Source: an uncultured Flavobacteriales bacterium | GTDB taxonomy: Bacteria > Bacteroidota > Bacteroidia > Flavobacteriales_G > Salibacteraceae | Direction of reading: 5' to 3' | Assembly: GCA_913020435.1 (NCBI GenBank) | Contig: CAJVZZ010000001.1 | Span: forward strand, 108,105 to 172,104 | DNA length: 64,000 nucleotides | Shown: one piece after another, positions 4,833-30,701 of the stretch | Layout: every line of letters starts with the position of its first letter | Numbering within the stretch: position 1 is the stretch's first letter | Notes under the pieces: model-generated | The model's database searches: none | Seen by the model: the letters and a program-made list of their open reading frames with translations, nothing else | Told to the model about the DNA's origin: nothing | Position numbers and translations under genes: made by a program

Positions 4833-4987
4833 ATCTATTTTTAGTTTAACATAATGTTGGGATAAAGATATAGTAATTTTTACCACAAGGTAATTTTACC
4901 TAAATTTTTTATTTGGAAAAACAGATTATTAATTAAGGTGATAATCAATAATACGAAAGGCGTTAAAAAAACTTCAGTTAAACTCTG

Positions 4988-6154: not shown

Positions 6155-6196
6155 AAGAGGTAGATTAAATTCTATACAAATTAAGAAAAATCAACG

Positions 6197-7564: not shown

Positions 7565-7582
7565 AATAATTTTATCTTTTAA

Positions 7583-9052: not shown

Positions 9053-9057
9053 TTCTA

Positions 9058-12186: not shown

Positions 12187-12402
12187 AGTTATAGTTATTT
12201 GTACCATTACTCTTGCAATGTTAATTTATTTTAACGGTTTTTCAAAAGAAAATAATCTTCAAATCATATAATAATGCTTTTTTTCAATATATATTCCTTG
12301 ATAAAAGGTTCAGAAAGCTCATGAATATCTTACTAATATTGAATTAATTTGCAAAAATATTTTAATATAAATTCTTTCTAACTTTTGAAAGATTCAGTTA
12401 TT

Positions 12403-13155
12403 ATGGCAGAAAAAAAAGAGAATTCTTTAGAAAAAGTTCTAGGACATCAGTTTAGTGCATTTTATAAAATTCCTCTCGACAAGTTTTTTCAGTTTGCTTT
12501 ATCTGTTGATTGCGTTATCCTAGGATATGTCGAAGATACTCTAAAACTGCTGGTCATTGAAAGGGGCGCTGAACCTCACAAGGGAAAAATGGCACTTCCC
12601 GGTGATTTAGTTTATCCAAGTGAAGACATGGATCTAGCTGCGAGTAGAGTTTTAAATGAACTAACTAACCTTGAGGAAGTTAATATGACCCAATTTCACA
12701 GCTACGGTCAAGTGGATAGGCACCCTGTAGGCAGAGTAATTACTGTTGGGTATTATTCGTTAATCAGTGTAGATCAATATGATCCATTGGCTAATTCATG
12801 GGCTGATAATGTTTCGTGGTTAGACGTGAAAAGCTTACCGAAATTGGCTTTTGATCATAATGAAATTGTAGATGAAGCTCTCCGAGCCTTAAAGCAAAGA
12901 GTTAGACTTCAACCAATTGGATTTAAGTTACTGCCTAAGGAATTTACATTGGGACAGATGCAAGATTTGTACGAAACAATTCTGGATGTAGCTTTTGATA
13001 AGGCAAATTTTCGGAAGAAAATTTTAGGAATGAATTTATTAAAAGACTCTGGTAAACTCCAGATTGATGTACCCCACAGGCCGGGTAGACTATATTCCTT
13101 TAATAAGTCTGCCTACGAGTCTTTACTGCAAACTGGTTACACCTTTGAGTTATAG
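12403..13155 (+). CDS. NrtR/AraR-like transcriptional regulator (degenerate Nudix domain plus C-terminal winged helix)
   Basis: The Nudix-box region GDLVYPSEDMDLAASRVLNELTNL keeps the G and R but lacks the catalytic REUxEE glutamates. The C-terminal half looks like a winged helix (FTLGQMQDLYETILDVAFDKANFRKKI). It lies between the two divergent PUL arms. Start at ATG 12403. Confidence 0.65.
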   Translation: MAEKKENSLEKVLGHQFSAFYKIPLDKFFQFALSVDCVILGYVEDTLKLLVIERGAEPHKGKMALPGDLVYPSEDMDLAASRVLNELTNLEEVNMTQFHSYGQVDRHPVGRVITVGYYSLISVDQYDPLANSWADNVSWLDVKSLPKLAFDHNEIVDEALRALKQRVRLQPIGFKLLPKEFTLGQMQDLYETILDVAFDKANFRKKILGMNLLKDSGKLQIDVPHRPGRLYSFNKSAYESLLQTGYTFEL

Positions 13156-13281: not shown

Positions 13282-13299
13282 ATTTTTTAAAAGCAAAAA

Positions 13300-14772
13300 G
13301 TGACTGAAGAATTTGAACTTATAATTTTTGGTGGAGACGGAGATTTATCATATCGAAAAATCTATCCAGCATTATATCACAGACTGAACGAAGGACAGAT
13401 TTCGAAAAATGTAAGAATTCTTGCTGTTTCTAGAAAACCTTACGAGATAGAAGATTTTCGTCAGAAAGTTAAGTCTGAGATATTGTCTTACGTGAAGGAT
13501 GCTAATATTAAAATTGTTGATCAATTGATTAGCTTGATTTCTAATGGGCGTATTGATACCAATAAGGGTGAAGAATGTGCAGTTACGAAAAGCTGGTTTT
13601 TAGAATCGACTGACTACGTAAGAGTGTTTTATCTAGCTACTCCTGCAGTGGTTTTTGGTTCAATATCAAAGTATCTGGATAAAATGCAGTATATAACTGC
13701 AAAGTCTAGGGTAGTATTGGAAAAACCTCTTGGAAAAAACTTAGAAAGTTCGGAGCAGATAAATGATGAGGTAGCAAAGTATTTTAAAGAAGAACAGATT
13801 TATAGAATTGATCATTATCTTGGAAAAGAGACTGTTCAAAATTTAATGGTCCTTCGATTTGCAAATAACATTTTTGAAAGTTCTTGGAACGCCAAGGATA
13901 TTGATAATGTGCAGATTACAGTGGCAGAATCAATTGGCGTAGGAACTAGGGGAGCTTTTTATGATCAATATGGCGCTTTGCGTGATATGGTTCAAAATCA
14001 TTTGTTGCAACTGCTTTGTTTGATTGCAATGGAGCCTCCAGTTAATTTGGAAGCTGACGAAGTTCGTGATGAAAAATTAAAAGTGCTGAAAGCACTCCGA
14101 TTTTATACTCCGGAAACAATTAATGAAAATACTGTCAGAGGTCAATACACCAGGGGTGGATCAGATACCGATCCATTGCCATCATACTTAGAAGATATTG
14201 AAAAGTTCAGTTCAAAGACTGAAACTTTCGTTGCTTTGAAGGCGAATATTGATAATTGGCGCTGGGGCGGTGTTCCTTTTTATTTGAGGACAGGTAAAAG
14301 AATGCCACATCGGTATTCGGAGATTATTATCAACTTCAAAAAAGTGCCGCATAATATTTTTCCAGATAAAAAAAATGTTGAAAGTAACCGGTTAACAGTG
14401 CGTCTTCAGCCTGATGAGAAAATCGAATTGCTTCAGATGGTTAAAGTTCCAGGTCCAGGAGGGTATCGTTATAAGCCATATGCGCTTGAACTGGATTATG
14501 CGGATCATTTTGAACATAGGTTTCCAGAGGCTTATGAGCGCCTACTTATGGATGTAGTGCGGGGAAATCAAACCTTATTTATGAGACGGGATGAAGTAAA
14601 GGCATCTTGGGAATGGATTGAATCCATTACTAAAAACTGGGAAACCAATAACGTATCTAATGTATTGTATGAAGCTGACTCTTGGGGGCCAGGCGGTGAT
14701 ATATTAGAGGAAGACCATAAGTGGGCAAAATCGCATCATGTAAAGAGGCTAGAAGAAAAACAAAAAGGATAA
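13300..14772 (+). CDS. zwf: Glucose-6-phosphate 1-dehydrogenase
   Basis: Signature RIDHYLGKE, an N-terminal dinucleotide-binding region (IIFGGDGDLSYRKIYPAL) and typical length (490 aa). GTG start. Confidence 0.9.
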   Translation: MTEEFELIIFGGDGDLSYRKIYPALYHRLNEGQISKNVRILAVSRKPYEIEDFRQKVKSEILSYVKDANIKIVDQLISLISNGRIDTNKGEECAVTKSWFLESTDYVRVFYLATPAVVFGSISKYLDKMQYITAKSRVVLEKPLGKNLESSEQINDEVAKYFKEEQIYRIDHYLGKETVQNLMVLRFANNIFESSWNAKDIDNVQITVAESIGVGTRGAFYDQYGALRDMVQNHLLQLLCLIAMEPPVNLEADEVRDEKLKVLKALRFYTPETINENTVRGQYTRGGSDTDPLPSYLEDIEKFSSKTETFVALKANIDNWRWGGVPFYLRTGKRMPHRYSEIIINFKKVPHNIFPDKKNVESNRLTVRLQPDEKIELLQMVKVPGPGGYRYKPYALELDYADHFEHRFPEAYERLLMDVVRGNQTLFMRRDEVKASWEWIESITKNWETNNVSNVLYEADSWGPGGDILEEDHKWAKSHHVKRLEEKQKG

Positions 14773-15464
14773 TGTTAGATAGCGCTAATTACAATAGAGA
14801 AATAGTTGATTCTGAATTACAAGTCTCAATAATTGCGGCTTTGAAGGATGAAATTCGTGCATTTGGTTCGGCTTCTTTATTGGTCTCAGGTGGTTCAACT
14901 CCAAAAAGATTATTTGACCTTTTATCCAACGAGAAATTAGAGTGGGATAAGGTTACACTTTCGCTAGTAGACGAACGATTTCTTCCAAATGGACATACAG
15001 ATCAAAATGGAGAGCTGATAAAGGAACACCTGTTGAAAAATGAAGCGATTAAAGCTAATTTTATCCCTCTCGTATTTGACCCGGCTGATGCAGAAAACAA
15101 CTTAAAGATGGCTGTTAAAGCTTTTGAAAATGTAAGTAGGCCTTTTACTGTTGTAGTTTTAGGGCTGGGTAAAGATGGTCATACAGCATCTCTTTTCCCA
15201 GATTCGCCGATGCTAGATAAGGCTATGGATAAAAACTCTTCAGAAATTCTACTAAACGTAACAACACCGAGTTCACCATATTCTAGAATTACTTTTAGCC
15301 GAAAAGTATTATTAGATGCGAAGAATTTATTTCTGCACTATTATGGCGTAGAGAAAAAAGAAATATTGGACAGTGTTTTAGATTGTACTAATCAAGAAAA
15401 ATACCCAATTTCAGGTTTTGTAAATCAACAAGAAAATATCCTGAAAGTTTATTGGGCAATGTAA
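14772..15464 (+). CDS. pgl: 6-phosphogluconolactonase
   Basis: SGGSTP and GLGKDGHTASLFP motifs. The ATG overlaps the zwf stop (TAATG). Confidence 0.85.
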   Translation: MLDSANYNREIVDSELQVSIIAALKDEIRAFGSASLLVSGGSTPKRLFDLLSNEKLEWDKVTLSLVDERFLPNGHTDQNGELIKEHLLKNEAIKANFIPLVFDPADAENNLKMAVKAFENVSRPFTVVVLGLGKDGHTASLFPDSPMLDKAMDKNSSEILLNVTTPSSPYSRITFSRKVLLDAKNLFLHYYGVEKKEILDSVLDCTNQEKYPISGFVNQQENILKVYWAM

Positions 15465-15467
15465 ATT

Positions 15468-17270
15468 ATGAACGAAACTATAAAGCAAATTACCGAGCGA
15501 ATTAGAGAACGTTCAGCGAAATCAAGAGCAGAATATATGAACTTGATGGAGAATAGCGCGCAAAATTCTGTTACTAGAAGTGGATTGGCATGTGGCAATC
15601 TTGCTCATGCATTTGCGGCTTGTAATGATGATGATAAAATGGATTTGAGTGAAAATATCTCTTGCAATTTTGCTATTATCACTTCCTATAATGATATGCT
15701 AAGTGCGCACAAGACTTATGAGGATTACCCGATCAAATTAAAGGCCTATGCTAATAAATATGGTTCTGTTGCTCAAGTAGCATCAGGAGTTCCTGCCATG
15801 TGTGATGGTGTTACACAAGGACAGGCTGGAATGGAGTTGTCATTATTTAGTAGAGATATAATTGCTTTGTCAACTGCAATAGGACTTTCCCACCAAATGT
15901 TCGACGGAGGCATGTGCTTAGGTATCTGCGATAAAATAGTTCCTGGAATGCTAATAGGGTCTTTAAGGTTTGGTCATTTGCCATTTGCATTTATACCCGG
16001 TGGTCCAATGGAATCTGGAATAACCAATGAAGAAAAAGCTCTTGCAAGAACAGAATATGCTGAAGGTAAAATTGGAAGAAAAGAGCTGTTAGCATCAGAA
16101 TCAGCATCTTATCACTCTGCTGGAACGTGCACATTCTATGGAACTGCTAACAGCAATCAAATGCTAATGGAAATTATGGGCATTCATTTGCCAGGTTCTT
16201 CATTCGTTAATCCAGGAACTCCTCTTCGAGACGCATTGAATGAATTTGCGGTAAAGCGACTTTCCCAAATAACTCATCAATCAAAAGAATATACTCCCCT
16301 TCACAAAGTTGTATCAGAGGAATGTATTGTTAATGCATTAGTCGGATTGGTTGCAACTGGAGGTTCAACGAATCATACGATACATCTTGTTGCAATTGCT
16401 AGAGCTGCAGGAATCATTATAGACTGGAATGATTTTAATGACGTTTCTGAGGTTGTACCCTCCATAACAAGAGTTTATCCAAATGGTTCTGCAGATATCA
16501 ATCATTTTCAAGCATGTGGAGGAATGGGATTCCTTATGAAAACACTTATAGATGGTGGGTATTTAAATGAAAATGTGAGTACTCTGATGGGACGCGGACT
16601 GGACCATTACACTAAGGAACCATTTTTAAATAACGGAAAGTTGGAATGGAGAGCTGCACCTGCTGAGTCGCTTGATGAAACAGTTTTAAGAGGTACTTCA
16701 AATCCATTTGCACCTAATGGTGGAATGAGATTACTAGAAGGGAATTTAGGAAGAGCAGTAATAAAAATTTCTGCAGTAAAAGAACAGCATCAAATTGTGC
16801 AAGCAGAAGCGGAGGTTTTCGAAGATCAAGATGATGTTCTTGTCGCTTTTACTGAGAAAAAACTAAATAAGGATGTTGTGGTCGTTGTGCGAAATCAGTC
16901 TGCTACTGAAAATGGAATGCCTGAACTTCATAAGCTGACTCCAACTCTGAGTATACTGCAACAAAATGGATTTAAAGTTGCTTTGGTGACAGACGGAAGA
17001 ATGTCTGGAGCGTCAGGTAAAGTTCCTGCAGCAATTCATCTTTCTTCAAAGAATGGCAGTAATGCCTTAATTAATAAGTTACAATCTGGTGATCCTATTC
17101 TTCTAAACGCTAAGACCGGTGTTTTGAGTTGTTTGAATGCCGATGAAGTTATTTTAAGAGAAAATTCGGCACAACCTCCAGGTGATGGTCAAGGTGTTGG
17201 TCGTGAGTTGTTCGAACGTCTAAGGCCGCTAGTTTCGGAAAGTGAAAATGGAGCTTCATTTATTATTTAA
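15468..17270 (+). CDS. edd: Phosphogluconate dehydratase (Entner-Doudoroff dehydratase)
   Basis: Collinear by eye with E. coli Edd as I remember it ([81 protein letters not shown]). 600 aa. Confidence 0.92.
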
Positions 17271-17857
17271 TGGATAAAATGAAGAATAATATTAGAGAAA
17301 TATTAGTACTGAATCCGTTGGTTCCTGTAGTCACATTTCATGAGAATGATGACCCTCTTGCATTCATGGAGTTCTTGCTCAAGCAAAATGTTAATTGTAT
17401 TGAAATTACACTAAGAACTAACAGTGGATTATCTGCAATTGAAAGTATAAAAAAGGAATTTGACACCGTAAAAGTTGGAGCAGGAACAGTTATAAATGGG
17501 GATCAAGTAAAAATATTGCGTGATTTAGGCGCAGACTTTATGGTTAGTCCAGGTACTACTAAAAAGTTGATAAAAGAATTTATTAATTCAGAGGTTCCAT
17601 TTATAAATGGAGTTAGTACTGCAAGCGAAATCATTTTAGCAAAAGAGTTAGGCCTAAATACGCTAAAGTTTTTCCCAGCTCATTTATATGGTGGGATAGA
17701 CGCAATAAAAATGTTTGGGCAACTATTTCCTGACGTGAAATTTTGTCCAACAGGTGGAATTAATGAACAAAGCAGCAAAGAATATCTGGAGCAATCCAAC
17801 GTCATTGCTGTTGGTGGGTCATGGTTTCAAAAAGAGTACAAGAATCTAAGAAAATAA
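17270..17857 (+). CDS. eda: 2-keto-3-deoxy-6-phosphogluconate (KDPG) aldolase
   Basis: IEITLRT and LKFFPA (Schiff-base lysine region) motifs. The ATG overlaps the edd stop. Confidence 0.85.
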   Translation: MDKMKNNIREILVLNPLVPVVTFHENDDPLAFMEFLLKQNVNCIEITLRTNSGLSAIESIKKEFDTVKVGAGTVINGDQVKILRDLGADFMVSPGTTKKLIKEFINSEVPFINGVSTASEIILAKELGLNTLKFFPAHLYGGIDAIKMFGQLFPDVKFCPTGGINEQSSKEYLEQSNVIAVGGSWFQKEYKNLRK

Positions 17858-17870
17858 AAAGAATAAAATT

Positions 17871-18764
17871 ATGATTGCAATCGCTGAAAGCGGATCTACT
17901 AAATGCGAATGGGTAATAATTGATGAAAGTTCAATTGAAGTTGCCAGAATTCGCACACAAGGTTTTAACCCTTACTTTCATTCAAGTGAGTTAGTCAAAA
18001 CCAAACTTTTAGGAACTGATGAATTTTCATCGTTTCTTTCTAAAATGAAAGAAGTATATTTTTATGGTGCAGGTTGTTCTAGTTCAGAATTGAATGAAAT
18101 TATTAAAGTAGGATTAAAGGGAGCTTTTCCCAATGCCAAAATATATGTAGATCATGATCTACTAGCTAGTGCATATTCTCTTTATGAAGGTAAGCCTCTG
18201 GTATCTTGTATTTTAGGCACAGGTTCTAATTCATGTTATTACAATGGAGTTGAACTGAAGCAAGTAAATCCTGCTCTTGGGTTTATTTTGGGAGATGAAG
18301 GTGGTGGGGCTTATTTTGGAAAAAAATTACTCAATGATTTCTTCTACAAAAAATTGCCCTTAGAGATTTACGAAGACTTTAATAAGACCTTCAATCTAGA
18401 TTGGGAGGCGGCTAGAAAAAACATCTATTCAAACATTTTTGCGAATGTTTATCTCGCTTCTTTTATGCCATTTATTGCCAAGCACAAGGATAATTACTAC
18501 GTTAAGGAGATGATTAAGCAGGGCTTTGCAAGGTTTATTGATGTACACGTAATGAGTTACCCTGTTTCTAAAGATGTTCAAATAGGTTTCGTAGGTTCAA
18601 TAGCTTCAATTTTTCAAGATATTCTCGAAAAAGAATTGGTGAAAAGAGAACTTGAATTGTATAAAATTGTTCGAAGTCCCATCGATGAATTAGTTAATTA
18701 TCATGTTAAACAATTTAAGTCGAAAATTAGTTCGAATAAAAATAATTCAGTACAGGTTAACTAA
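17871..18764 (+). CDS. BadF/BadG/BcrA/BcrD-type sugar kinase (putative glucokinase / N-acetylglucosamine-kinase-like)
   Basis: N-terminal IAESGSTKCEW and GTGSNS motifs of the ASKHA/BadF-type kinases that are usually annotated as N-acetylglucosamine kinase in Bacteroidetes. The context suggests glucose phosphorylation. Confidence 0.6.
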   Translation: MIAIAESGSTKCEWVIIDESSIEVARIRTQGFNPYFHSSELVKTKLLGTDEFSSFLSKMKEVYFYGAGCSSSELNEIIKVGLKGAFPNAKIYVDHDLLASAYSLYEGKPLVSCILGTGSNSCYYNGVELKQVNPALGFILGDEGGGAYFGKKLLNDFFYKKLPLEIYEDFNKTFNLDWEAARKNIYSNIFANVYLASFMPFIAKHKDNYYVKEMIKQGFARFIDVHVMSYPVSKDVQIGFVGSIASIFQDILEKELVKRELELYKIVRSPIDELVNYHVKQFKSKISSNKNNSVQVN

Positions 18765-20062
18765 TGGCACAATTAGCAAAATGGAAACATCGAATGCTTA
18801 ACCTTGGGTTAAACTTTTTGGTATGCTCTATTTTGTATTGTAGCTTATTTTCTTGCTCTGCTCCTGAAGTTAAAAATCTTGCAGCTTCTGAAATATTAGG
18901 TAATCTGAATTATCCAGCACTTTGCTATGGGGGTTATCGTTCAAATTCACGCAAAATTGAACCTTCTAAGGAGGAGTTAAAAGAAGATTTAATAATCCTT
19001 TCAGCACTCGGAATCAAAATTTTGAGAACTTATCATGCAGCTGAATTTGGGCAAGCAGAAAATCTTTTAAAAGTTATTTCAGAATTAAAAGAGGATAATC
19101 CAAATTTTGAAATGTATGTCATGCTTGGTGCCTGGATTGAGTGCAAGAATGCTTGGACCGATTTACCCGATCATACTTTAGAAAATTTTGAGAAGAATAA
19201 AAATGAGGTTAGAACTGCTATTCGACTCGCAACTTCATATCCCGACATTGTAAAAGTAATTGCTGTTGGTAACGAATCTATGGTGCATTGGGCAGCAAGT
19301 TACTTTGTTCATCCTGAGGTAGTATTACGTTGGGTTAACCTTGTGCAATCACTAAAAAGTAAAGGCAAATTATCTAAAGACTTGTGGGTTACTAGTTCCG
19401 ATAATTTTGCTTCTTGGGGTGGAGTAGATAGCTCTTACCACAATGCAAGTCTGTTAGAATTGATTGATGCCGTGGATTATGTTTCCATACACACTTATCC
19501 ATTTCATGACACTCATTATGATGGTGAATTTTGGATTCAACCAGACAGCAATGATGTATTAATTAAGAAATCTCAAATAGACTTTGGAATGGCTAAGGCA
19601 GTAGAACATGCTCAAAGTCAATTCAGTTCGGTTAAGAGTTTCATGCAGGAAAATGGAATTAAAAAACCAATTCACATTGGAGAAACTGGTTGGGCAACTA
19701 TTTCTACGGATAATTATGGCCATAATGGAACTAATGCAGCCGACGAATACAAGCAAAGAGCTTACTATTTGGGAATGAAAAACTGGATAGATTCCATAGG
19801 TGTAAGTTGCTTCTTTTTCGAAGCATTTGATGAGCCGTGGAAAGATGCCAGAAATACTAGCGGTTCAGAAAATCATTTTGGTTGGATTGATATTGAAGGT
19901 AAGGCCAAATGTATTTTGTGGGATCAAATTGATCAAGGAAAGCTAAACGGTCTAAAACGAAATAATATAGAAATTACTAAAAGCTACAATGGAAATTTAG
20001 ACTCAATGCTGCTTTATAGCTCAGCTCCTCCTATAAAAGTTTTAGAAAACGATACATTATGA
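18764..20062 (+). CDS. GH17 family beta-1,3-glucanase lipoprotein
   Basis: GH17-like acid/base (AVGNESMVHW) and nucleophile (IHIGETGWAT) regions, with a lipoprotein-like signal (SLFSCSAPE). Confidence 0.75.
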   Translation: MAQLAKWKHRMLNLGLNFLVCSILYCSLFSCSAPEVKNLAASEILGNLNYPALCYGGYRSNSRKIEPSKEELKEDLIILSALGIKILRTYHAAEFGQAENLLKVISELKEDNPNFEMYVMLGAWIECKNAWTDLPDHTLENFEKNKNEVRTAIRLATSYPDIVKVIAVGNESMVHWAASYFVHPEVVLRWVNLVQSLKSKGKLSKDLWVTSSDNFASWGGVDSSYHNASLLELIDAVDYVSIHTYPFHDTHYDGEFWIQPDSNDVLIKKSQIDFGMAKAVEHAQSQFSSVKSFMQENGIKKPIHIGETGWATISTDNYGHNGTNAADEYKQRAYYLGMKNWIDSIGVSCFFFEAFDEPWKDARNTSGSENHFGWIDIEGKAKCILWDQIDQGKLNGLKRNNIEITKSYNGNLDSMLLYSSAPPIKVLENDTL

Positions 20063-21618: not shown

Positions 21619-21624
21619 ATAATT

Positions 21625-22821
21625 ATGAAAGAAATAATCTTTGGGTCAATTCTTTGTCTTGCCATGGTCGGATGCAATACGAACCGAGCTATTGAGGCTG
21701 CAGGTCAAGCTGAATCTCTTTCCGAGAAAAGAATAGTGGTGCCCTTTGATAGTTCCAATTTTGAAAGTGAAACGCAAAATTTCACTACAATTATCCAAAC
21801 TACCGGAAGATACAAGATTTCCGTTTTTGGCTCTAAAGGTAGCGGTGAAGTTTGGATCGAAGATTACGTTGAAAATCAAGATCAACGAGAGTACAATATT
21901 ACTGGGAGCCTGAAAATAGCCCAAAATTCAACTGCAAGTATTGAAGGTTCGCCTCTTGCTTCTGGAGAGCACAGCATGCAAGTGCATAAATCAATTAATT
22001 TTCAAGTTGACAGTTTGGTGTTAGAATTAATCCAGAATAACCAAGATACAAAAGACACTTTAGTTCAAAACACTGAAGGGGAGAAATGGGAATTGGTATG
22101 GTCTGATGAATTTGAAAATGCGGGTCTCCCAGATAGTACAAAATGGAGCTATAATATTGGAAATTGGGGATGGGGAAATAATGAACTGCAGTATTATACT
22201 TCCGATAAATTAGAAAATGCTAAAATTGAAGATGGAAACCTTGTAATAACGGCAATCAAAGATCTTAAAGATTCAACATGGACTTCTGCAAGATTGACCA
22301 CACAGGGTAAGGTTGCATTTAAATATGGGAAAATAGAGTTTAGAGCAAAAGTTCCTGCAGTTCGTGGCACTTGGGCAGCTGGTTGGTTGCTTGGAGATGC
22401 ATATCGAGATGAAATCTCTTGGCCATATTGTGGTGAAATTGATGTTCTGGAGTGTGTCGGTTATGAAATAAATGATACTACAGAAAAAGGAATAAATCAT
22501 GCAACTTGTCACACTAGAGCTTATTACTTCAAGCAGAACAATCAAATTGGAAGTGAGATAGAGTTGGATAGTATGCACTCAAAATTTCATACTTATTCTG
22601 TAGAATGGTATCCAAATGAAATCAAAGGTTTTGTAGATGGAATTCATTATTACACGTATGATAAAAACGCAAATGATCAAGAATGGCCATTTCACCAGTC
22701 ACAGAATATTATTCTAAACTTAGCTATTGGTGGTGGTTGGGGAGGATTAAAAGGTGTTGATCAATCTATGATTAGCCAGCAGTACACGATTGATTACGTA
22801 AGAGTTTTTGAAAAAAGATAA
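21625..22821 (+). CDS. GH16 family beta-1,3(4)-glucanase (laminarinase-type) lipoprotein
   Basis: Catalytic motif GEIDVLECVG plus WAAGWLLG, a lipobox (LAMVGCNTN) and an N-terminal module of about 150 aa of unknown type. Confidence 0.85.
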   Translation: MKEIIFGSILCLAMVGCNTNRAIEAAGQAESLSEKRIVVPFDSSNFESETQNFTTIIQTTGRYKISVFGSKGSGEVWIEDYVENQDQREYNITGSLKIAQNSTASIEGSPLASGEHSMQVHKSINFQVDSLVLELIQNNQDTKDTLVQNTEGEKWELVWSDEFENAGLPDSTKWSYNIGNWGWGNNELQYYTSDKLENAKIEDGNLVITAIKDLKDSTWTSARLTTQGKVAFKYGKIEFRAKVPAVRGTWAAGWLLGDAYRDEISWPYCGEIDVLECVGYEINDTTEKGINHATCHTRAYYFKQNNQIGSEIELDSMHSKFHTYSVEWYPNEIKGFVDGIHYYTYDKNANDQEWPFHQSQNIILNLAIGGGWGGLKGVDQSMISQQYTIDYVRVFEKR

Positions 22822-22823
22822 GC

Positions 22824-24332
22824 TTGAACTTTAGATTATTACTCATATTTTTCGTATTTATTGCATGCAATTCAAAGCGCGAACAGCATCTAAGTGTTCG
22901 AGTTTTTCAGACGAGTGCTAGTGGTGACAAACTGACTGAGAAAAGTTTGTCTGAATCGCAAAAATCTCCGGAACATACAGTTCAAATAAATCCAAATAAA
23001 AAATTTCAAGTCATAACAGGTATAGGTGGAGCTTTTACTGAATCTTCAGCATCTATTCTAAATCAATTGAGCAAATCCAATAGGGTTAAAATAATGAAGG
23101 CCTATTTTTCAGATAGCGGGGCTAATTATTCCTTGACTAGAACTCACATAAATTCCTGCGATTTTTCTTTAGGCACCTACTCTTATGATTCCGTCGTAAA
23201 TGATACTCAACTGCAATATTTTGATATTTCACCAGATAAGAACGATCTTATTCCAATGATAAAAGAAGCCCAAGCTATTTCTAACGAGGGGTTTAAAATC
23301 ATTGCTTCTCCTTGGACTGCTCCACCGTGGATGAAGGATAATAATAGCTGGAAAGGAGGGAAGTTACTTCCTAAATATTATACAACTTGGGCAAATTACT
23401 TGGTGAAGTATATTGATGAATACAAAAAAGAAGGAATACCAATTTGGGCATTAACTATAGAAAACGAACCGCTTGGAAATGGGGAGAACTGGGAAAGCAT
23501 GCACTATACACCTCAAGAAATGGCCAGTTTTATAAAAAGTCATTTGGGTCCGACCTTAGACAAGAATAACCTAGAAACTGAATTGTTGGTTTATGATCAA
23601 AATAGAGGAGAAGATTTAAATGCGTGGTCTTCAATTTTACTCACTGATAGTATGTTGGAACCTTACATATATGGAACAGCAGTTCATTGGTATTCTAGCA
23701 CAGTGGATTGGTTTCCGCAGTCTCTGCAGCAAACGCATGCATACGCCCCTCAAAAACATATCATTCAAACAGAGGGCTGTATTGATGCAGAAATTCCTAA
23801 GTGGAAAGACGATGCGTGGTATTGGAAAAAAGAAGCGACTGATTGGGGTTGGGATTGGGCAATTGAAGAAGACAAACCAAATCACCCAAAATATGTTCCT
23901 ACCTATAGGTATGCCCGTGATATAATAGGTTGTATGAATAACTGGGTAGAAGGTTGGATAGATTGGAATATGGTTTTGGATAAGAAAGGGGGCCCCAATT
24001 GGGCAAATAATTGGTGTATTGCTCCAGTAATAGCCGATCCAGAAAAAGATGAAGTTTATTTTACGCCATTGTATTATGTAATGGCTCATTTTAGTAAGTA
24101 TTTTCGGCCCAATTCAAGGAGAATAGAATGTATTTCAACTTCAGATGGTCTGCTAGTTACAGCTGTTGAAAATACTACTGGAAGTATAGCTGTTGCTGTT
24201 TTAAATGAACAGAATGACCCACTTACTTTCAATTTAAAAATAGGGTCACAATCTCAGATAGTAGAAATTGAAGGTAAGGCATTGCAAACTATCATAGTTA
24301 ACGGAAAATCAATACTGAAAAAAGCAAATTAG
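22824..24332 (+). CDS. GH30 family glycosidase (beta-1,6-glucosidase-type) lipoprotein
   Basis: GH30-like acid/base TIENEPLG and nucleophile-region IIQTEGC, with a lipobox (FVFIACNSK). TTG start 2 nt after the GH16 stop. Confidence 0.8.
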   Translation: MNFRLLLIFFVFIACNSKREQHLSVRVFQTSASGDKLTEKSLSESQKSPEHTVQINPNKKFQVITGIGGAFTESSASILNQLSKSNRVKIMKAYFSDSGANYSLTRTHINSCDFSLGTYSYDSVVNDTQLQYFDISPDKNDLIPMIKEAQAISNEGFKIIASPWTAPPWMKDNNSWKGGKLLPKYYTTWANYLVKYIDEYKKEGIPIWALTIENEPLGNGENWESMHYTPQEMASFIKSHLGPTLDKNNLETELLVYDQNRGEDLNAWSSILLTDSMLEPYIYGTAVHWYSSTVDWFPQSLQQTHAYAPQKHIIQTEGCIDAEIPKWKDDAWYWKKEATDWGWDWAIEEDKPNHPKYVPTYRYARDIIGCMNNWVEGWIDWNMVLDKKGGPNWANNWCIAPVIADPEKDEVYFTPLYYVMAHFSKYFRPNSRRIECISTSDGLLVTAVENTTGSIAVAVLNEQNDPLTFNLKIGSQSQIVEIEGKALQTIIVNGKSILKKAN

Positions 24333-24333
24333 A

Positions 24334-27300
24334 ATGGAGGAGTTAAACCCAGAAATAGTAGGTGAATACACTACACTGAGTGACGGAGATTACTTTGTAA
24401 TCAGAAACTTTAATAAAATGCGTGCGTTTTTCATGACGGTTGTAAGCGCAAATAATCATTGGATGTTTATATCGAGCAATGGTGCTCTAACGGCTGGAAG
24501 AATTAACCCCGATAGCGCATTTTTCCCATACTACACAGACGATAAAATAACGGATTCCGCTGGAATTACAGGCTCAAAAACTATCATTCGCGTGCAAACA
24601 GAAGCCGGTATTAAAGTATGGCAGCCCTTTAATGATCAACTAGAGGGTTTTTATAATACAACCAGCAACATATACAAAAACAGAGAAGGTAATAAACTAG
24701 TTTTCGAAGAAGTGAATCACGATTTGGATTTAATTTTTCGATATTCTTGGTCTTTTTCGGAGAAGTATGGAATCGTAAAAAAGTCCGAATTAATCAATAT
24801 TGGAAAAAATGACCAAAATATAAACCTATTGGATGGAATTCAAAATATTCTTCCATTTGGTATAATGCAGGCATTACAAAATGAACGAAGTACACTTGCT
24901 GATGCTTATAAAACAGCAGTTTGGGATGATTCTAAAAAGCTAGGAATTTATTCTTTGAGTTCAATGGTTGTAGATAAAGCGGAGCCAAGTGAGGCTCTGA
25001 AAGCAACGACGGTTTGGACAAATGGAATTGACTGCAAAAATATTTTGCTTTCATCGGTTCAAGTAGCTGAATTTAATAGATCAGGAAAAATTGAGTTTGA
25101 GCATATAGTAAAGGCTGAGAAAGGTGCATTTTTTGTTAATTCTGAATTCATTTTGAAATCAAAAGGAAATAAAGAATGGTCTTTAATTGGAGAGGTAAAC
25201 CAGTCTTCAAGTGATTTGGCTAAGCTTTCGAATGTAATTTCTAATAGGTCAAAAATTCAGCTCGAATTAGAAGCTGATATATGGAAAAACAAACAAGATC
25301 TTAGAAAAAAAATAGGACTAAGTGATGGTATTCAGTTATCAAAAGATAGATTAGGAACAGGCAGACATTTTTCTAACGTGTTATTTAACATCATGCGTGG
25401 TGGAACTTATGAGGATGAATATCAGATAGATACTCAAGACTTATCAGAGCATATTGCTGTAATGAATAAGGCAGCCCATGCTGAGCTTCAGCCAATATTA
25501 ACTGAGCTACCAAATTTTATTTCCTATCACCAGTTGCGTTATTTTTTACAGGCTTCTAAGCATAAGGGAATAATGCGTTATTACTTGGAATACCTTCCAC
25601 TTTCCTTTAGCAGAAGACACGGTGACCCTAGCAGACCATGGAACTACTTTAGTATTAAGCTAAAGAATGAAAAAGGAAAAGGAGTGAAAAATTACGAAGG
25701 GAATTGGCGTGATATTTTTCAGAATTGGGAAGCGCTTGCATACAGTTATCCAGAATATGCACTTGGTATGATTTCCAAATTTGTAAATGCCTCTAGCATA
25801 GATGGCTATAATCCTTATCGAATTACAAAAGATGGAATAGATTGGGAGGTTGTAGATCCTGCTGATCCTTGGTCGCACATTGGATATTGGGGAGATCATC
25901 AGGTTATATACTTAACCAAGCTTTTAGAGTTTTCAGATAATTTCCACCCTATTAGATTAAGGAAACTATTAAATCAACCCATTTTCTCTTATGCTAATGT
26001 ACCGTATCGAATTAAAGGATATGATGCGATAGTAAACGACGCTAAGCACACTATAAATTTCGATTTTGGAGTGGAGAAGTCCATCAAAAAGCAAGTCGAA
26101 AAATTAGGTTCAGATGGTAAATTGGTTCATAGTTCTGCAGGAAATATCGTTCTGGTAAATTTGACTGAGAAATTATTGGTAATGATACTTACCAAGCTTT
26201 ACAACTTTGTTCCGGAAGGTGGAATATGGTTGAATACACAACGTCCTGAATGGAATGATGCCAATAATGCTTTAGTTGGTAATGGAGTTTCAATGGTTAC
26301 ACTGTATTACTTACATCGTCTTCTGAAATTTTCAGAGACATTATTTAGCAATTTAGAAAAAAGCAGTGTTTCTATTAATAAACCTGTTATTGATTTAATG
26401 GATGCAATATCTAGGTCATTTAGTGATTATAATGAGTCTCTTATTAATGGATTTAATGATGTGGATCGAAGAAGCTTTATGGATAGTGTTGGTGTTGCAG
26501 GTGAGCATTATAGAACTACGGCTTATAGCGGTTTTACTGGTGAAAAACGTGAATTGACCTATTCTAAACTCAAAGACTTTTTAGCAACTGCACGGAAATA
26601 TTTGAGTCATTCGATTGCAATTAACAAACGAAAAGATGGATTATTTCATTCTTATAATCTTTTAGATTTTTCCAGTAATAAGGCTAGAATTAGTCATTTG
26701 TATAAAATGTTAGAAGGTCAAGTGTCTGTTCTAAGTGCGAACTACTTATCTCCAAAAGAATCCGTTCACATTCTAGATGCTTTAAAGTCAAGCGACATGT
26801 TTCGAGTAGATCAGTATAGCTATATGCTTTATCCAGATCGTGACTTGTCCTCTTTTGTGAATAAGAACAACATAAATGCTGAAGACTTGGCAAACTCAAG
26901 ATTAGCTGATGCCTTGCTTTCAAATAATAATACTTCAATTATTGAAAAAGACATTAATGGGGTAGCTCATTTCAACGGCGAGTTTCACAATTCGGAAGAT
27001 TTAGAAAATGCATTGGATAAATTGACTGGACCGATTTGGACGCGTCTAGTTAGAAGCGAAAAAAAGAAGTTTATTGCTCTTTTTGAGAAAGTATTTAATC
27101 ACAAATCGTTCACTGGACGTTCGGGTGCATTTTATGGCTATGAAGGACTAGGAAGTATTTATTGGCACATGGTTTCTAAGTTATTGTTGGCAATTCAAGA
27201 AAACATTTATAAGCTCAATGACTCAGACAAAGGAACTGAAACGTATGGAAAACTAGTCGAACATTATTTTGAGGTTAGAGCTGGAATTGGGATCAATAAG

Positions 27301-27765
27301 TCTCCAAAATTGTATGGAGCATTTCCGACAGATGCATATTCGCATACTCCTAAACATGCAGGAGTAAAGCAGCCTGGAATGACAGGACAGGTAAAGGAAG
27401 ACATCATAAACCGTTGGGCAGAATTGGGAGTACAAGCTCATCAAGGAAGACTCTCTTACAAACCGAAATTCTTAAGGAAATCTGAGTTTATCGATCAAGA
27501 AGATTCACTTTCTTGTTACTCATACCTAGGAGAAGTAATTAAGGTTATTGTTCCTAAAAATGGATTAGGATTTACTTACTGCCAAACACCTGTTGTCTAC
27601 AAAATTGAAGATAACAATGATCTCAACATTTTTTATACCGATGGTAGTTCCAAAAAAGTTGAAGGCTGCACGTTGGATCTTGAAGATTCGAAAAGTGTTT
27701 TTAAGAGAAAAGGGAAAATCTTAAGAATTGAATTATCCATTAAGGAAGAAAATCTTTTGCCTTAA
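24334..27765 (+). CDS. Large cytoplasmic protein, putative GH149/GH161-type (GH94-clan) beta-1,3-glucan phosphorylase
   Basis: 1143 aa with no signal peptide. It carries an RPEWNDANNALVGNG motif (WND at 26251-26259) that resembles the catalytic-acid DWND-type motif of GH94-clan phosphorylases. Conserved-looking RRHGDPSRPWN and GYWGDHQVIYL blocks are also present. Size and GH16/GH17/GH30/MFS neighbourhood match what I recall for bacterial GH149. Confidence 0.5.
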   Translation: MEELNPEIVGEYTTLSDGDYFVIRNFNKMRAFFMTVVSANNHWMFISSNGALTAGRINPDSAFFPYYTDDKITDSAGITGSKTIIRVQTEAGIKVWQPFNDQLEGFYNTTSNIYKNREGNKLVFEEVNHDLDLIFRYSWSFSEKYGIVKKSELINIGKNDQNINLLDGIQNILPFGIMQALQNERSTLADAYKTAVWDDSKKLGIYSLSSMVVDKAEPSEALKATTVWTNGIDCKNILLSSVQVAEFNRSGKIEFEHIVKAEKGAFFVNSEFILKSKGNKEWSLIGEVNQSSSDLAKLSNVISNRSKIQLELEADIWKNKQDLRKKIGLSDGIQLSKDRLGTGRHFSNVLFNIMRGGTYEDEYQIDTQDLSEHIAVMNKAAHAELQPILTELPNFISYHQLRYFLQASKHKGIMRYYLEYLPLSFSRRHGDPSRPWNYFSIKLKNEKGKGVKNYEGNWRDIFQNWEALAYSYPEYALGMISKFVNASSIDGYNPYRITKDGIDWEVVDPADPWSHIGYWGDHQVIYLTKLLEFSDNFHPIRLRKLLNQPIFSYANVPYRIKGYDAIVNDAKHTINFDFGVEKSIKKQVEKLGSDGKLVHSSAGNIVLVNLTEKLLVMILTKLYNFVPEGGIWLNTQRPEWNDANNALVGNGVSMVTLYYLHRLLKFSETLFSNLEKSSVSINKPVIDLMDAISRSFSDYNESLINGFNDVDRRSFMDSVGVAGEHYRTTAYSGFTGEKRELTYSKLKDFLATARKYLSHSIAINKRKDGLFHSYNLLDFSSNKARISHLYKMLEGQVSVLSANYLSPKESVHILDALKSSDMFRVDQYSYMLYPDRDLSSFVNKNNINAEDLANSRLADALLSNNNTSIIEKDINGVAHFNGEFHNSEDLENALDKLTGPIWTRLVRSEKKKFIALFEKVFNHKSFTGRSGAFYGYEGLGSIYWHMVSKLLLAIQENIYKLNDSDKGTETYGKLVEHYFEVRAGIGINKSPKLYGAFPTDAYSHTPKHAGVKQPGMTGQVKEDIINRWAELGVQAHQGRLSYKPKFLRKSEFIDQEDSLSCYSYLGEVIKVIVPKNGLGFTYCQTPVVYKIEDNNDLNIFYTDGSSKKVEGCTLDLEDSKSVFKRKGKILRIELSIKEENLLP

Positions 27766-27776
27766 TCAGAGTTATA

Positions 27777-29090
27777 ATGGCACTTTCTAAAAATTACAGA
27801 ATATCCTTTGCGCTCATAACTGTTCTATTCTTTTTTTTAGGATTTATTACTGTGTTGGTTGACTCGTTAATCCCACGATTACGAGAGCTTTTTGATTTAA
27901 GTTATTTTGAAGCTGGGACTGTGCAATTTGCTTTTTTCAGTGCTTATTTTGCCTTATCGATTCCGTCAAGTTATTTTTTGACAAAAATTGGATACAAGGG
28001 AGGAATTATTACTGGATTGCTCGTAATGGCTTTAGGATGTGCTTTGTTCTATCCTGCTGCAGAATATCGGTCATTTGGAATATTTATTTCTGGTTATTTT
28101 ATTCTAGCAGGAGGTATGACGTTATTGCAAGTAGCCATAAATCCTTTTGTAGCTGTTTTAGGAGATGAAAAATCTTCATCAAGTAGATTGACGTTAGCAC
28201 AAGCATTCAACTCATTGGGGACGGCCATAGCGCCTGCTGTTGGAGCTTTTTTTATTCTGTCTGATACCATTAAAACTAAAGCTCAAATAGAGGATTTAAC
28301 CCATTCTATGAAAGAATCATACTTGGCTGCAGAAGCTGCAGCGGTGCAACTTCCATTTGTAACAATTGCTGCTGTTATTGCTTTGGTGGCAGTTGTTTTT
28401 CTTTTTGCAAAACTTCCTAAGCTCATTGAGTCGAATGAAAGAACTTCTTATTGGGATTTATTACAGCATAAAAATTTATTGTATGGAGTTCTAGGTATCT
28501 TCTTTTATGTGGGAGCAGAAGTTGCAATTGGCAGTTATTTGGTCAACTACTTATTAGATATGGACCTAGTGCCCATAATAAAGAATAATGCATACATGAA
28601 ATCCATAGCTGAGGGCATATTGAATGCTGATTTGCTGCAAAAAGATCAAAAAGCTATAGTTGGAGTTTTCGTTACATTTTATTGGTCAGGAGCTATGATT
28701 GGCAGATTTGTAGGAGCTTACCTTACCAAAAGATATAGCCCTGGCAAAGTAATCGGAATATTCGCTTTCTGTGCGATCGTCTTGTCTCTTATTTCAATTT
28801 CAACGACTGGTTTAACAGCCATGTGGAGTGTAATTACAATAGGGTTATTCAATTCTATTATGTTCCCAACAATCTTCAGTCTAGCAATTGGAGGTTTGGG
28901 AGTGCTTAAACCTAAAGCATCTGGCTTACTGTGTATGGCAATTGTTGGAGGTGCGCTAGTCCCGCCAATGTTTGGCTTTTTAGCAGACACGGGTGGATTT
29001 AAAATTGCTCTGTTGCTGGTTGTCTTTTGCTATGCCTATATAGCCTTCTTCGGCTTTAGGAATTATAGAATGAAAAATTCAATACTCTAG
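27777..29090 (+). CDS. MFS transporter of the glucose/galactose (GluP/FucP-like) family
   Basis: 12-TM protein of 437 aa whose N-terminal pattern (FALITVLFFFLGFITVLVDSLIPRLRELF) is typical of GluP/FucP-type importers. Last gene of the operon. Confidence 0.75.
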   Translation: MALSKNYRISFALITVLFFFLGFITVLVDSLIPRLRELFDLSYFEAGTVQFAFFSAYFALSIPSSYFLTKIGYKGGIITGLLVMALGCALFYPAAEYRSFGIFISGYFILAGGMTLLQVAINPFVAVLGDEKSSSSRLTLAQAFNSLGTAIAPAVGAFFILSDTIKTKAQIEDLTHSMKESYLAAEAAAVQLPFVTIAAVIALVAVVFLFAKLPKLIESNERTSYWDLLQHKNLLYGVLGIFFYVGAEVAIGSYLVNYLLDMDLVPIIKNNAYMKSIAEGILNADLLQKDQKAIVGVFVTFYWSGAMIGRFVGAYLTKRYSPGKVIGIFAFCAIVLSLISISTTGLTAMWSVITIGLFNSIMFPTIFSLAIGGLGVLKPKASGLLCMAIVGGALVPPMFGFLADTGGFKIALLLVVFCYAYIAFFGFRNYRMKNSIL

Positions 29091-29293: not shown

Positions 29294-30700
29294 TCATAAG
29301 ATTTGGTAGTGGCAATTCTCTAATATTTCCTTTGCCCTTTCCTCAGTTCTTCCCTCAGCATATGTCCTCAGAACAGGCTCGGTTCCAGAAGGTCGAATCA
29401 TTAACCATTCGTCTGCATTGAAGTAATATTTCCAGCCGTCTAAGTCTTCAATGCGCTCAACTTTCCAATTGCCAAATGAGCTGTATTTCCCTGCTTTGCA
29501 ATTAGATACAACTTCTTGTTTTTTGGCTTGAGAAAGCTTTAAATCAATACGCTGAAATGCAAAGCTGCCAACTAAATCAGTCACTTCCTTCAATAATTCT
29601 GGAAGCGTTTTTTTAGTTTCCATCATGGCTTGAATCAATACCAACCCATTCCATATACCATCACGCTCCGGAATATGTCCCTTCACTGCAATACCACCGG
29701 ACTCTTCGCCGCCAACTAAAATGTCCTCGTTCACCATTAGACTGCAAATATGTTTGAATCCAATAGGTACAACCTCTAATTCTAGATTATGCATTTTGCA
29801 GAATTGAGTAATTTTTACTGTGGAGCTAAAGCCCGTGGCTACTTTTCCTTTCCAGCCTTTGTAATTGCACAAATAGTGGAGTAGCAGTAATATAATATTG
29901 TGTGAATCGATGTAATTGCCTTCTCCGTCAAATAAGCCAATTCGATCGGCGTCGCCATCATTTACCAATCCAAAATCAAGATTTGGAGTATCTTGAAGGT
30001 GATTTTGATAAGCACCTAAATTCTTGAGAACAGGTTCTGGATTTATGCCGAAAAAAGTAGGGTTCCATTCGCAACGAAAAAGGTCAGCATTTGGAAACAG
30101 TTCTTGCATAATGAATTGGCCACTACCATACATAGCGTCGTAGGAAAGGTTTAGTCCAGAGTTTCGGATAGCCTCAATATCGAAGGACATATGAATTTTA
30201 TCCAAGTACAATTTCTTTAAGTCTACTTCTTGAGCTGAATTATTGTCGAATGCTTCAAATTCATAAGAAATATTGTCTGGAATAAGTTCTTCGATTTCTG
30301 AAATAGCCTCGGCCAATAGTGGGCCTCCAAAAGCTCCCTTTAGTTTGTAACCATTGTAGTTTGCCGGATTGTGTGAAGCTGTTAGAATTATTCCTAAATC
30401 ACAATCCAACTCCTTAGCCGCAAGACTAATTGCTGGCGTTGTAATCGGTTGATTGTAGATTATTGTTTCAATACCCTCATGCAATAACACTTTAGAAACC
30501 ACATCCATAAACTGTTTACCGGCAAAGCGACAATCGAAACCGATAACCACTTTGGATTTGGAATTAGTGTTGAGGACAGAGTTCGGCTTGGTCTGCTTTA
30601 ACCAATTAGCTACTCCGTAAGTTATTCGGGCAACATTGTAATTGGTAAATTCTTTTGCAATTATGGCTCTCCAACCATCTGTTCCAAATTTTATTTTCAT
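29294..30700 (-). CDS. Phosphoglucomutase/phosphomannomutase (alpha-D-phosphohexomutase superfamily)
   Basis: Active-site serine loop TASHNPANYNGYK, metal loop NDGDADRIG and sugar-binding GGEESGG. Confidence 0.85.
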   Translation of the reverse strand: MKIKFGTDGWRAIIAKEFTNYNVARITYGVANWLKQTKPNSVLNTNSKSKVVIGFDCRFAGKQFMDVVSKVLLHEGIETIIYNQPITTPAISLAAKELDCDLGIILTASHNPANYNGYKLKGAFGGPLLAEAISEIEELIPDNISYEFEAFDNNSAQEVDLKKLYLDKIHMSFDIEAIRNSGLNLSYDAMYGSGQFIMQELFPNADLFRCEWNPTFFGINPEPVLKNLGAYQNHLQDTPNLDFGLVNDGDADRIGLFDGEGNYIDSHNIILLLLHYLCNYKGWKGKVATGFSSTVKITQFCKMHNLELEVVPIGFKHICSLMVNEDILVGGEESGGIAVKGHIPERDGIWNGLVLIQAMMETKKTLPELLKEVTDLVGSFAFQRIDLKLSQAKKQEVVSNCKAGKYSSFGNWKVERIEDLDGWKYYFNADEWLMIRPSGTEPVLRTYAEGRTEERAKEILENCHYQIL

Positions 30701-30701
30701 C

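Follow-up and report, generated by a model that had tools for sequence, protein, structure and literature searches.

Two GH149 enzymes are characterized in the papers cited here, EgP1 and Pro_7066, and both have been shown biochemically to be beta-1,3-glucan phosphorylases that convert G3 and G2 to glucose (PMC5827456, PMC6484121). They are 45% identical and differ in their chain-length kinetics, and the Pro_7066 reaction is freely reversible in vitro, with products of up to DP 11 (PMC5827456). Pro_7066 also tolerates disaccharide acceptors whose beta linkage has a different regiochemistry (PMC6484121). In GH149 crystals, G6 is bound solely at a remote surface site and the acceptor subsites have never been seen occupied (PMC6771811), and chain-length and branch tolerance is therefore not readable from sequence. 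GH149 genes have already been described in marine Bacteroidota laminarin PULs (PMC5827456, PMC6246565, PMC13188888). Pro_7066 comes from a proprietary metagenome, and its flavobacterial origin is inferred only (PMC5827456); the first-pass annotation had assigned the bacterial founder to a Bacteroidetes PUL, and Pro_7066 has no known genomic context.

The window analyzed here is a 64,000-nucleotide stretch of contig CAJVZZ010000001.1 (assembly GCA_913020435.1) from an uncultured Flavobacteriales bacterium. It contains an ATG-initiated ORF for a 1143-aa protein, labeled "hypothetical" in public records, which clearly belongs to the known family GH149 and is unexceptional within it. With a probability of about 0.9, its product is a GH149 (clan GH-Q) enzyme of the cytoplasm with predicted inverting phosphorylase activity, encoded in a typical laminarin utilization cluster.

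Gene neighborhood of the GH149 ORF

The GH149 gene is part of a string of 11 genes on one strand, namely, zwf, pgl, edd, eda, a sugar kinase gene, GH17, MFS, GH16, GH30, GH149, and a GluP-type MFS gene, which diverges from a SusC/SusD/GH16 arm (Table 1). The locus thus combines a SusC/SusD pair with GH16 (twice), GH17, and GH30, the set by which Bacteroidota laminarin PULs are recognized. Only 1 nt separates GH149 from the upstream GH30 gene, and the GluP/FucP-type gene begins 11 nt downstream of the GH149 stop codon. The GH17 product has no Pfam or NCBIfam match and is identified by its PDB match. The GH30 enzyme, which is related to beta-1,6-glucanases, likely debranches laminarin, and the sugar kinase is presumed to be a glucokinase. 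The scanned ORFs of the window include no GH3 or GH1 beta-glucosidase. A sigma-70 promoter and terminator scan of positions 12000 to 31000, whose model does not cover Bacteroidota promoters, gave 57 promoter-like sites, compared with 64 expected from shuffles.

Table 1. Features of the laminarin locus, by position in the window or by residue of the GH149 protein
Feature	Position	Strand	Evidence or remark
Surface arm of locus	2799..12207	-	
CBM-rich protein, T9SS sorting tail	2799-4886	-	
GH16 of surface arm	4988-6154	-	
PKD/CBM protein	6197-7564	-	
SusD-like	7583-9052	-	
SusC-like TonB-dependent transporter	9058-12207	-	
Nudix/NrtR-AraR-type winged-helix regulator	12385..13155	+	Between divergent arms
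zwf to eda	13300..17857	+	Oxidative entry steps and Entner-Doudoroff pathway
zwf	13300-14772	+	
pgl	14721-15464	+	
edd	15468-17270	+	
eda	17270-17857	+	
BadF/GlcNAc-kinase-type sugar kinase	17871..18764	+	
GH17 beta-1,3-glucanase, lipoprotein-type signal	18764..20062	+	PDB 6FCG, E=1.4e-145
MFS sugar-porter family transporter, 519 aa	20059..21618	+	
GH16 glucanase, lipoprotein-type signal	21625..22821	+	
GH30 glycosidase, lipoprotein-type signal	22824..24332	+	Pfam PF02055, E=4e-79
GH149 beta-1,3-glucan (laminari-oligosaccharide) phosphorylase gene	24334..27765	+	NCBIfam, phmmer, AlphaFold2/Foldseek
Beta-sandwich at the N terminus	residues ~1-291		Mapped from Pro_7066, limits PMC6771811
Helical linker	residues ~292-329		Mapped from Pro_7066, limits PMC6771811
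(alpha/alpha)6 catalytic domain	aa ~330-1031		Mapped from Pro_7066, PMC6771811
Insert Dom1	residues ~358-417		Mapped from Pro_7066, PMC6771811
Insert Dom2	residues ~839-924		Mapped from Pro_7066, PMC6771811
C-terminal jelly roll	residues ~1032-1143		Mapped from Pro_7066, PMC6771811
Conserved block RRHGDPSRPWNYF, residues 427-439	25612..25650	+	
RD motif codons R459-D460, sugar 1-phosphate recognition	25708..25713	+	R470-D471 of Pro_7066
Conserved block GYWGDHQVIYL, residues 517-527	25882..25914	+	
WND catalytic-loop codons W640-N641-D642	26251..26259	+	D642 = predicted catalytic Asp D653 of Pro_7066 (PMC6771811)
EGLGSIYWH codons E937 to H945	27142..27168	+	Alignment to Pro_7066
GluP/FucP-type MFS transporter	27777..29090	+	TIGR01272, 276 bits vs cutoff 203
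Phosphoglucomutase/phosphomannomutase (PGM/PMM)-superfamily protein	29294..30700	-	Convergent to cluster, next to mltG

The glycoside hydrolase neighbors recur in other genomes. Among 80 other genomes, 64 have a GH17 homolog, 52 a GH30 homolog, and 49 a GH16 homolog within 10 kb of GH149; the first-pass annotation had ascribed GH16/GH17/GH30 neighborhoods to the family. The sugar porter co-occurs with GH149 in 22 of the 80 loci. The zwf-pgl-edd-eda genes and the kinase gene directly ahead of the hydrolase and phosphorylase genes are found in a single other locus (L002) among the 80.

Family, fold, and active site

The NCBIfam equivalog model NF058639 (GH149 1,3-beta-D-glucan phosphorylase) matches the protein over residues 7 to 1137, corresponding to profile positions 4 to 1134 of 1134, and scores 1594 bits (cutoff, 1150), and it is the sole NCBIfam model that does so. 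In a phmmer search, the protein aligned collinearly and at full length with Pro_7066 (PDB 6HQ6/6HQ8; PMC5827456, PMC6771811), with residues 14 to 1141 matching 45 to 1174 (E=0, 1170 bits) at 48% identity. The AlphaFold2 monomer model (pLDDT of 83.8 and pTM of 0.84, with pLDDT of <50 in the active-site loops 431 to 442, 639 to 642, and 923 to 942) superposes on 6HQ6 in Foldseek with TM scores of 0.95/0.96 over 1141 columns, and the matching fold includes the (alpha/alpha)6 catalytic domain. Both GH149-specific inserts, Dom1 and Dom2, are present, the alignment being unbroken through Pro_7066 residues 370 to 428 and 852 to 938 apart from one 2-residue gap. The first-pass annotation had called the protein a candidate GH149/GH161-type beta-1,3-glucan phosphorylase, suggesting as checks family models, a structural search for the (alpha/alpha)6 barrel, and a search for the phosphate site. 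The three checks that can be made computationally all favor the call, and the equivalog model, 6HQ6, and the fold place it in GH149 specifically.

The same annotation had described a large ORF that lacks a signal peptide and lies between a GH30 gene and a GluP-type transporter gene, and the ORF, its charge and hydropathy, and the families of its neighbors agree with this. The protein has no signal peptide, with an acidic N terminus containing no K/R and four D/E among the first 15 residues, and 19-residue Kyte-Doolittle means reach 0.75 at most among the first 40 windows. The maximum over the whole protein is 1.52, and there is therefore no membrane-span-like segment.

The predicted WND, RD, Glu, and His active-site residues are identical to those of Pro_7066. 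R459, D460, W640, N641, D642, E937, and H945 correspond to R470, D471, W651, N652, D653, E951 (donor-site contact), and H959 (phosphate recognition) of Pro_7066 (PMC6771811), the 6HQ6 PDB chain sequence being numbered with a uniform offset of 19 relative to that paper. None of these seven positions, among them the catalytic Asp and those of the sugar-phosphate and phosphate sites, varies across 31 aligned homologs that share 50 to 63% identity with the query. The motif at W640-N641-D642, within RPEWNDANNALVGNG (residues 637 to 651), had been likened to a DWND-type catalytic-acid motif; the position and the WND core are correct, but this protein reads E-W-N-D rather than D-W-N-D, and the name used in the literature is "WND motif" (PMC6771811). 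Invariant runs extend from R427 to N437, G517 to Q523, and N634 to G649, and the two blocks previously singled out as conserved looking, RRHGDPSRPWNYF and GYWGDHQVIYL, both carry such runs. At the surface-binding site, Y841 and E994 of Pro_7066 correspond to the invariant Y828 and E980, and Y993 is replaced by F979, which keeps the aromatic ring at a position occupied by Tyr in 29 of the 31 homologs.

There is a small chance that the protein is a true GH149 enzyme with another substrate or chain-length window, such as beta-1,6-branched laminari-oligosaccharides, mixed-linkage beta-1,3/1,4-oligosaccharides, or laminaribiose only. A shift of this kind would be in keeping with a family of only two characterized members whose kinetics diverge, with the acceptor tolerance of Pro_7066, and with F979 at the surface site, but the equivalog score is well over its cutoff, the known donor-site residues are all invariant, the GH16, GH17, and GH30 neighbors form the canonical laminarin set, and GH30 could remove beta-1,6 branches ahead of import.

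Proposed role in laminarin utilization

The likely role of the GH149 enzyme is the cytoplasmic phosphorolysis of laminari-oligosaccharides to alpha-glucose-1-phosphate (Glc1P) and glucose. Phosphate would remove the nonreducing-end glucose from linear beta-1,3-gluco-oligosaccharides, yielding Glc1P and a chain one unit shorter, and, by analogy with Pro_7066 and EgP1, shortening would continue down to laminaribiose, which would give Glc1P and glucose. The general acid would be D642 of the WND loop; the glucosyl or Glc1P moiety would be held by R459/D460 and E937, with H945 contributing to the phosphate site. In the pathway proposed here, the SusC/SusD, PKD-CBM, and GH16 arm would capture and nick laminarin at the cell surface, the GH16, GH17, and GH30 lipoproteins would shorten it and remove its branches in the periplasm, and short oligosaccharides and glucose would be imported by an inner-membrane MFS transporter. 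The cytoplasmic GH149 enzyme would then complete the depolymerization, saving one ATP per glucose released as Glc1P, and a phosphoglucomutase and the kinase would turn Glc1P and glucose into Glc6P for the co-encoded Zwf-Pgl-Edd-Eda route. We infer the activity of the enzyme, the range of chain lengths that it accepts, joint transcription of the genes, which transporter imports oligosaccharides, and what the kinase and mutase act on.

Both flanking MFS transporters fall in monosaccharide-named families (sugar porter for one, glucose/galactose or fucose permease for the other), which do not account for how oligosaccharides would reach a cytoplasmic enzyme. To our knowledge, laminaribiose or laminari-oligosaccharide specificity has not been described for either family. 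With GH149 in the cytoplasm and no beta-glucosidase encoded close by, one of these transporters may bring such compounds in; the likeliest candidate is the sugar porter, which co-occurs with GH149 in 22 of 80 loci. We tentatively suggest that the 11 genes form a co-regulated unit combining periplasmic trimming, phosphorolysis, and the complete Entner-Doudoroff pathway under the Nudix/NrtR-type regulator, with a flanking MFS transporter as the importer; as a whole, this is possible rather than probable.

The first-pass annotation had also pointed out that, if its call was correct, the products are what the adjacent phosphoglucomutase, kinase, and Entner-Doudoroff genes consume. The kinase, edd, eda, zwf, and pgl genes do lie upstream on the same strand, whereas the PGM-family gene runs the other way, beside mltG, and no homolog of it is near GH149 in any of the 80 other loci; its adjacency was downgraded as functional linkage. 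Its product scores below all equivalog cutoffs and could convert Glc1P to Glc6P, a link that is biochemically sound and has no support from comparative genomics across those loci.

It is very unlikely that the enzyme works mainly in the synthetic direction, forming intracellular beta-1,3-glucan or oligosaccharides from Glc1P, as the reaction's reversibility, the DP 11 products of Pro_7066, and the nearby PGM-family gene might suggest. Cellular phosphate levels normally favor phosphorolysis, which counts against synthesis. In addition, the genes around it, in a string linked to SusC/SusD, encode degradative enzymes, transporters, and the glycolytic Entner-Doudoroff steps, there was no sign of a glucan synthase or of genes related to storage, and bacterial GH149 enzymes have been assigned a degradative role (PMC5827456, PMC6246565, PMC13188888).

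Comparison with related phosphorylases and loci

The protein is almost certainly not a GH161 or GH94 enzyme: it shares a clan-level fold with both and has weak phmmer matches to GH161 chains, but these are partial (three short stretches, E~4e-14), and its identities of 15% to GH161 structures (TM 0.65) and 9 to 13% to GH94 structures (TM 0.42 to 0.56) compare with 48% and a TM of 0.95 for GH149. A Pfam scan of the protein returned no family at E<=1, GH94 models included, and GH94 domain membership is therefore excluded; Pfam contains no GH149 model, and the empty scan is thus not counterevidence to GH149. GH161 (PapP; PDB 9GY9 and 9QQK) shares the clan GH-Q fold, the reaction type, and the aligned catalytic Asp, but GH161 enzymes do not cleave laminaribiose (PMC6484121) and occur mainly in Gram-positive hosts with ABC transporters. 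The GH94 laminaribiose phosphorylase PsLBP (PDB 6GGY/6GH3; 12% identity, TM 0.56) has the clan fold, the WND and RD motifs, and the beta-1,3 linkage in common with the query, but it is disaccharide specific and lacks Dom1 and Dom2.

Pro_7066 resembles the protein in its four-domain layout with two inserts, its active-site residues, its lack of a signal peptide, and its inferred flavobacterial origin. It differs in 52% of residues, in a 2-residue deletion in Dom1 of the query, and in Tyr993, which is Phe979 here; its activity has been demonstrated, whereas that of the 1143-aa protein is predicted, and the query gene has a defined locus. The assignment gives a function to a protein of an abundant, uncultured marine flavobacterium that is seen among the marine contigs of Tara Oceans and JGI, and it adds a further example of the phosphorolytic, ATP-saving use of laminarin, a major marine carbon pool, while leaving knowledge of GH149, its mechanism, and its genomic context unchanged.

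Only two points are mildly unusual, the Entner-Doudoroff genes joined directly to the GH149 string and the question of the oligosaccharide importer. The GH149 PULs of Formosa, Polaribacter, and Muricauda (PMC6246565, PMC13188888, PMC5827456) likewise have SusC/SusD, GH16, GH17, and GH30 co-located. Unlike in those marine Flavobacteriia, the hydrolase and phosphorylase genes here directly follow zwf-pgl-edd-eda and the kinase gene, the candidate regulator is of the Nudix/NrtR type, and the host is an uncultured open-ocean member of the Salibacteraceae.

Family assignment and predicted fold

The 1143-aa protein belongs to family GH149, and we put the probability that it acts as a GH149 β-1,3-glucan phosphorylase in cytoplasmic laminarin catabolism at roughly 90%; the residual doubt concerns its exact substrate range rather than its family. 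Its sole match in NCBIfam is NF058639 ("1,3-beta-D-glucan phosphorylase, GH149 family"), an equivalog-level model with a curated cutoff of 1150 bits, which it matches at 1594 bits (residues 7-1137 against positions 4-1134 of 1134), and a Pfam search of the protein returned zero matching models. The top match among all PDB sequences is Pro_7066 (6HQ6/6HQ8), a characterised bacterial GH149 enzyme (E=0, 1170 bits, residues 14-1141 against 45-1174), with 48% identity (429 of the 894 positions counted in the printed alignment; Foldseek likewise gave 48%). The AlphaFold2 monomer model, built with 31 homologues, has a mean pLDDT of 83.8 and a pTM of 0.84. In the Foldseek comparison with a GH149 structure that the first-pass annotation had proposed as a check, the model matched 6HQ6 at TM scores of 0.95/0.96 across 1141 columns. 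It is beta-rich to about residue 290, followed by two long linker helices (292-329), a mainly helical part to about residue 1030, and a beta-rich C terminus, and this order agrees with the published domain description of Pro_7066, including its two GH149-specific inserts (PMC6771811).

The first-pass annotation had called the protein a candidate of GH149/GH161 type; GH149 proved to be the right family, and the GH161 part of the call is not borne out. GH161 chains rank second among the PDB matches, with three short stretches only (E~4e-14), and GH161 structures reach TM scores of 0.63-0.65 at 15% identity; that family is a clan relative only. GH94 is likewise only a clan relative, with a TM score of 0.56 and 12% identity for laminaribiose phosphorylase and TM scores of 0.42-0.49 for other GH94 enzymes. 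All the testable marks of GH149 membership are present in the protein, and those of GH161 and GH94 are absent.

Active site, surface site, and localisation

The published active-site features of Pro_7066 are W651/N652/D653 of the WND loop, of which D653 is predicted to be catalytic, R470/D471 of the RD motif, E951, and H959 (PMC6771811). The equivalent residues here, W640/N641/D642, R459/D460, E937, and H945, are invariant across an alignment of 31 homologues with 50-63% identity to the protein. The three sequence blocks quoted in the first-pass annotation all lie where it had placed them. It had also located the WND motif correctly and likened it to the DWND type; the sequence itself is E-W-N-D, the "WND" of the literature. 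At the remote surface glucan-binding site, Y841 and E994 of Pro_7066 correspond to the invariant Y828 and E980, and E990 corresponds to E976, where the homologues have E or D. Y993 is replaced by F979; 29 of the 31 sequences have Tyr at this position and the other 2 have Phe, so that the aromatic platform is preserved. The least confident parts of the monomer model (pLDDT <50) are the loops 431-442, 639-642, and 923-942, which are also the most sequence-invariant active-site loops; their order might require a dimer partner or a ligand.

The N terminus (MEELNPEIVGEYTTLSDGDY...) has 0 basic and 4 acidic residues in positions 1-15. The highest 19-residue hydropathy means are 0.75 in the first 40 sliding windows and 1.52 in the whole protein, which accordingly has neither a signal peptide nor a membrane span. 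This agrees with the earlier description of a large ORF lacking a signal peptide between GH30 and a GluP-type transporter, as do the coordinates and both neighbours. Lipoprotein-type signals are found at the start of GH16, GH17, and GH30 but not of GH149.

Gene neighbourhood and proposed pathway

GH149 is the tenth of 11 codirectional genes separated by gaps of at most 13 nt or by slight overlaps, in the order zwf, pgl, edd, eda, sugar kinase, GH17, MFS sugar porter, GH16, GH30, GH149, and GluP/FucP-type MFS. The string is divergent from a surface arm that encodes SusC-like and SusD-like proteins, a PKD/CBM protein, another GH16, and a CBM-rich protein bearing a T9SS sorting tail.

Features of the GH149 locus and further ORFs of the window
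Feature	Coordinates	Strand	Remarks
Winged-helix regulator, Nudix/NrtR-AraR type (candidate)	12385-13155	+	Between SusC/SusD arm and ED/laminarin arm
11-gene string	13300-29090	+	
pgl	14721-15464	+	Longest ORF; GTG start; 52-nt overlap with zwf end
Sugar kinase	17871-18764	+	297 aa; BadF/GlcNAc-kinase type
GH17	18764-20062	+	432 aa; PDB 6FCG (Formosa GH17), E=1.4e-145; lipoprotein-type signal
MFS sugar porter	20059-21618	+	519 aa (long); Pfam profile matched in two stretches
GH30		+	Directly upstream of GH149, gap 1 nt; lipoprotein-type signal
GH149	24334-27765	+	1143 aa; ATG start
W640-N641-D642 codons	26251-26259	+	
GluP/FucP-type MFS	27777-29090	+	Downstream of GH149, gap 11 nt
DUF6500 ORF	~29079-29219	-	46 aa; overlaps MFS gene end
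PGM/PMM-superfamily protein	29294-30700	-	Downstream, convergent with cluster, beside mltG
ORF	37693-40011	+	772 aa; directly after small protein with T9SS sorting tail
ORF	46345-47682	-	444 aa

The real start of pgl is probably further downstream. The GH17 gene has zero matches in Pfam or NCBIfam, and annotation from HMM libraries alone would overlook it. The kinase has no Pfam match at E<=1e-5; among solved structures it is closest to BadF-type GlcNAc/MurNAc kinases of Bacteroidota (1ZXO, 8OQK; E down to 1e-55), and only its genomic context suggests a glucokinase. The PGM/PMM protein scores highest against an archaeal-type GlmM model, below all equivalog cutoffs. The DUF6500 ORF, lying between the GluP-type MFS and PGM genes, appears in some public gene calls, on contigs of identical sequence (L081, L084). 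The 772-aa and 444-aa ORFs both have zero Pfam matches at E<=1e-4. No GH3 or GH1 β-glucosidase was found among the window ORFs scanned.

Pro_7066 and EgP1, a second characterised GH149 enzyme, are proven β-1,3-glucan phosphorylases, degrading G3 and G2 to glucose (PMC5827456; PMC6484121). By homology, the present enzyme would phosphorolyse linear β-1,3-gluco-oligosaccharides from the non-reducing end to α-Glc1P and finally glucose. In the proposed pathway, SusC/SusD and GH16 would capture and endo-cleave the glucan at the surface, GH17, GH16, and GH30 would trim it and remove β-1,6 branches in the periplasm, an MFS protein would offer a candidate import route, and GH149 would act in the cytoplasm. 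A phosphoglucomutase and the kinase would then convert Glc1P and glucose to Glc6P, which would enter Zwf-Pgl-Edd-Eda. The family, fold, residues, localisation signals, and gene order behind this scheme are established; the activity and chain-length range of GH149, the co-transcription of the genes, and what the transporter, kinase, and mutase are specific for are putative. Both MFS proteins flanking GH149 belong to families named for monosaccharide transport (sugar porter; GluP/FucP), and oligosaccharide import is not known for either family.

Comparison with other laminarin loci

Within 10 kb of GH149 at 80 other loci of GTDB species representatives, homologues of GH17 are the most frequent neighbours (64/80), followed by GH30 (52/80), GH16 (49/80), the sugar porter (22/80), and SusC/SusD (15-17/80). 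The GluP-type MFS occurs at only 2 loci and the ED genes at only one, that of an uncultured Flavobacteriales MAG (L002) with the identical 11-gene order and a GH149 58% identical to ours. PGM lies within 10 kb at none of the 80. Of the phosphoglucomutase, kinase, and ED genes that the first-pass annotation set beside GH149, the kinase and ED genes do share its string, but the PGM gene is convergent and its proximity is not conserved.

Marine metagenome contigs from Tara Oceans and JGI, up to 365 kb long, encode the exact protein. NCBI members of its 90%-identity cluster, from Salibacteraceae MAGs, are labelled "hypothetical protein," and the nearest other cluster is just 64% identical. GH149 genes in marine Bacteroidota laminarin PULs have been on record since the founding of the family (PMC5827456) and were also noted in Formosa (PMC6246565) and Muricauda (PMC13188888), and the protein therefore adds a new, hitherto unnamed member to a known family, in a context known for that family. 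Current annotation models already recognise it, and its biology is well precedented. Less common here are the direct joining to ED genes and the candidate regulator of the locus, which is of Nudix/NrtR-AraR type, whereas LuxR- and BguR-type regulators are mentioned for other laminarin PULs.
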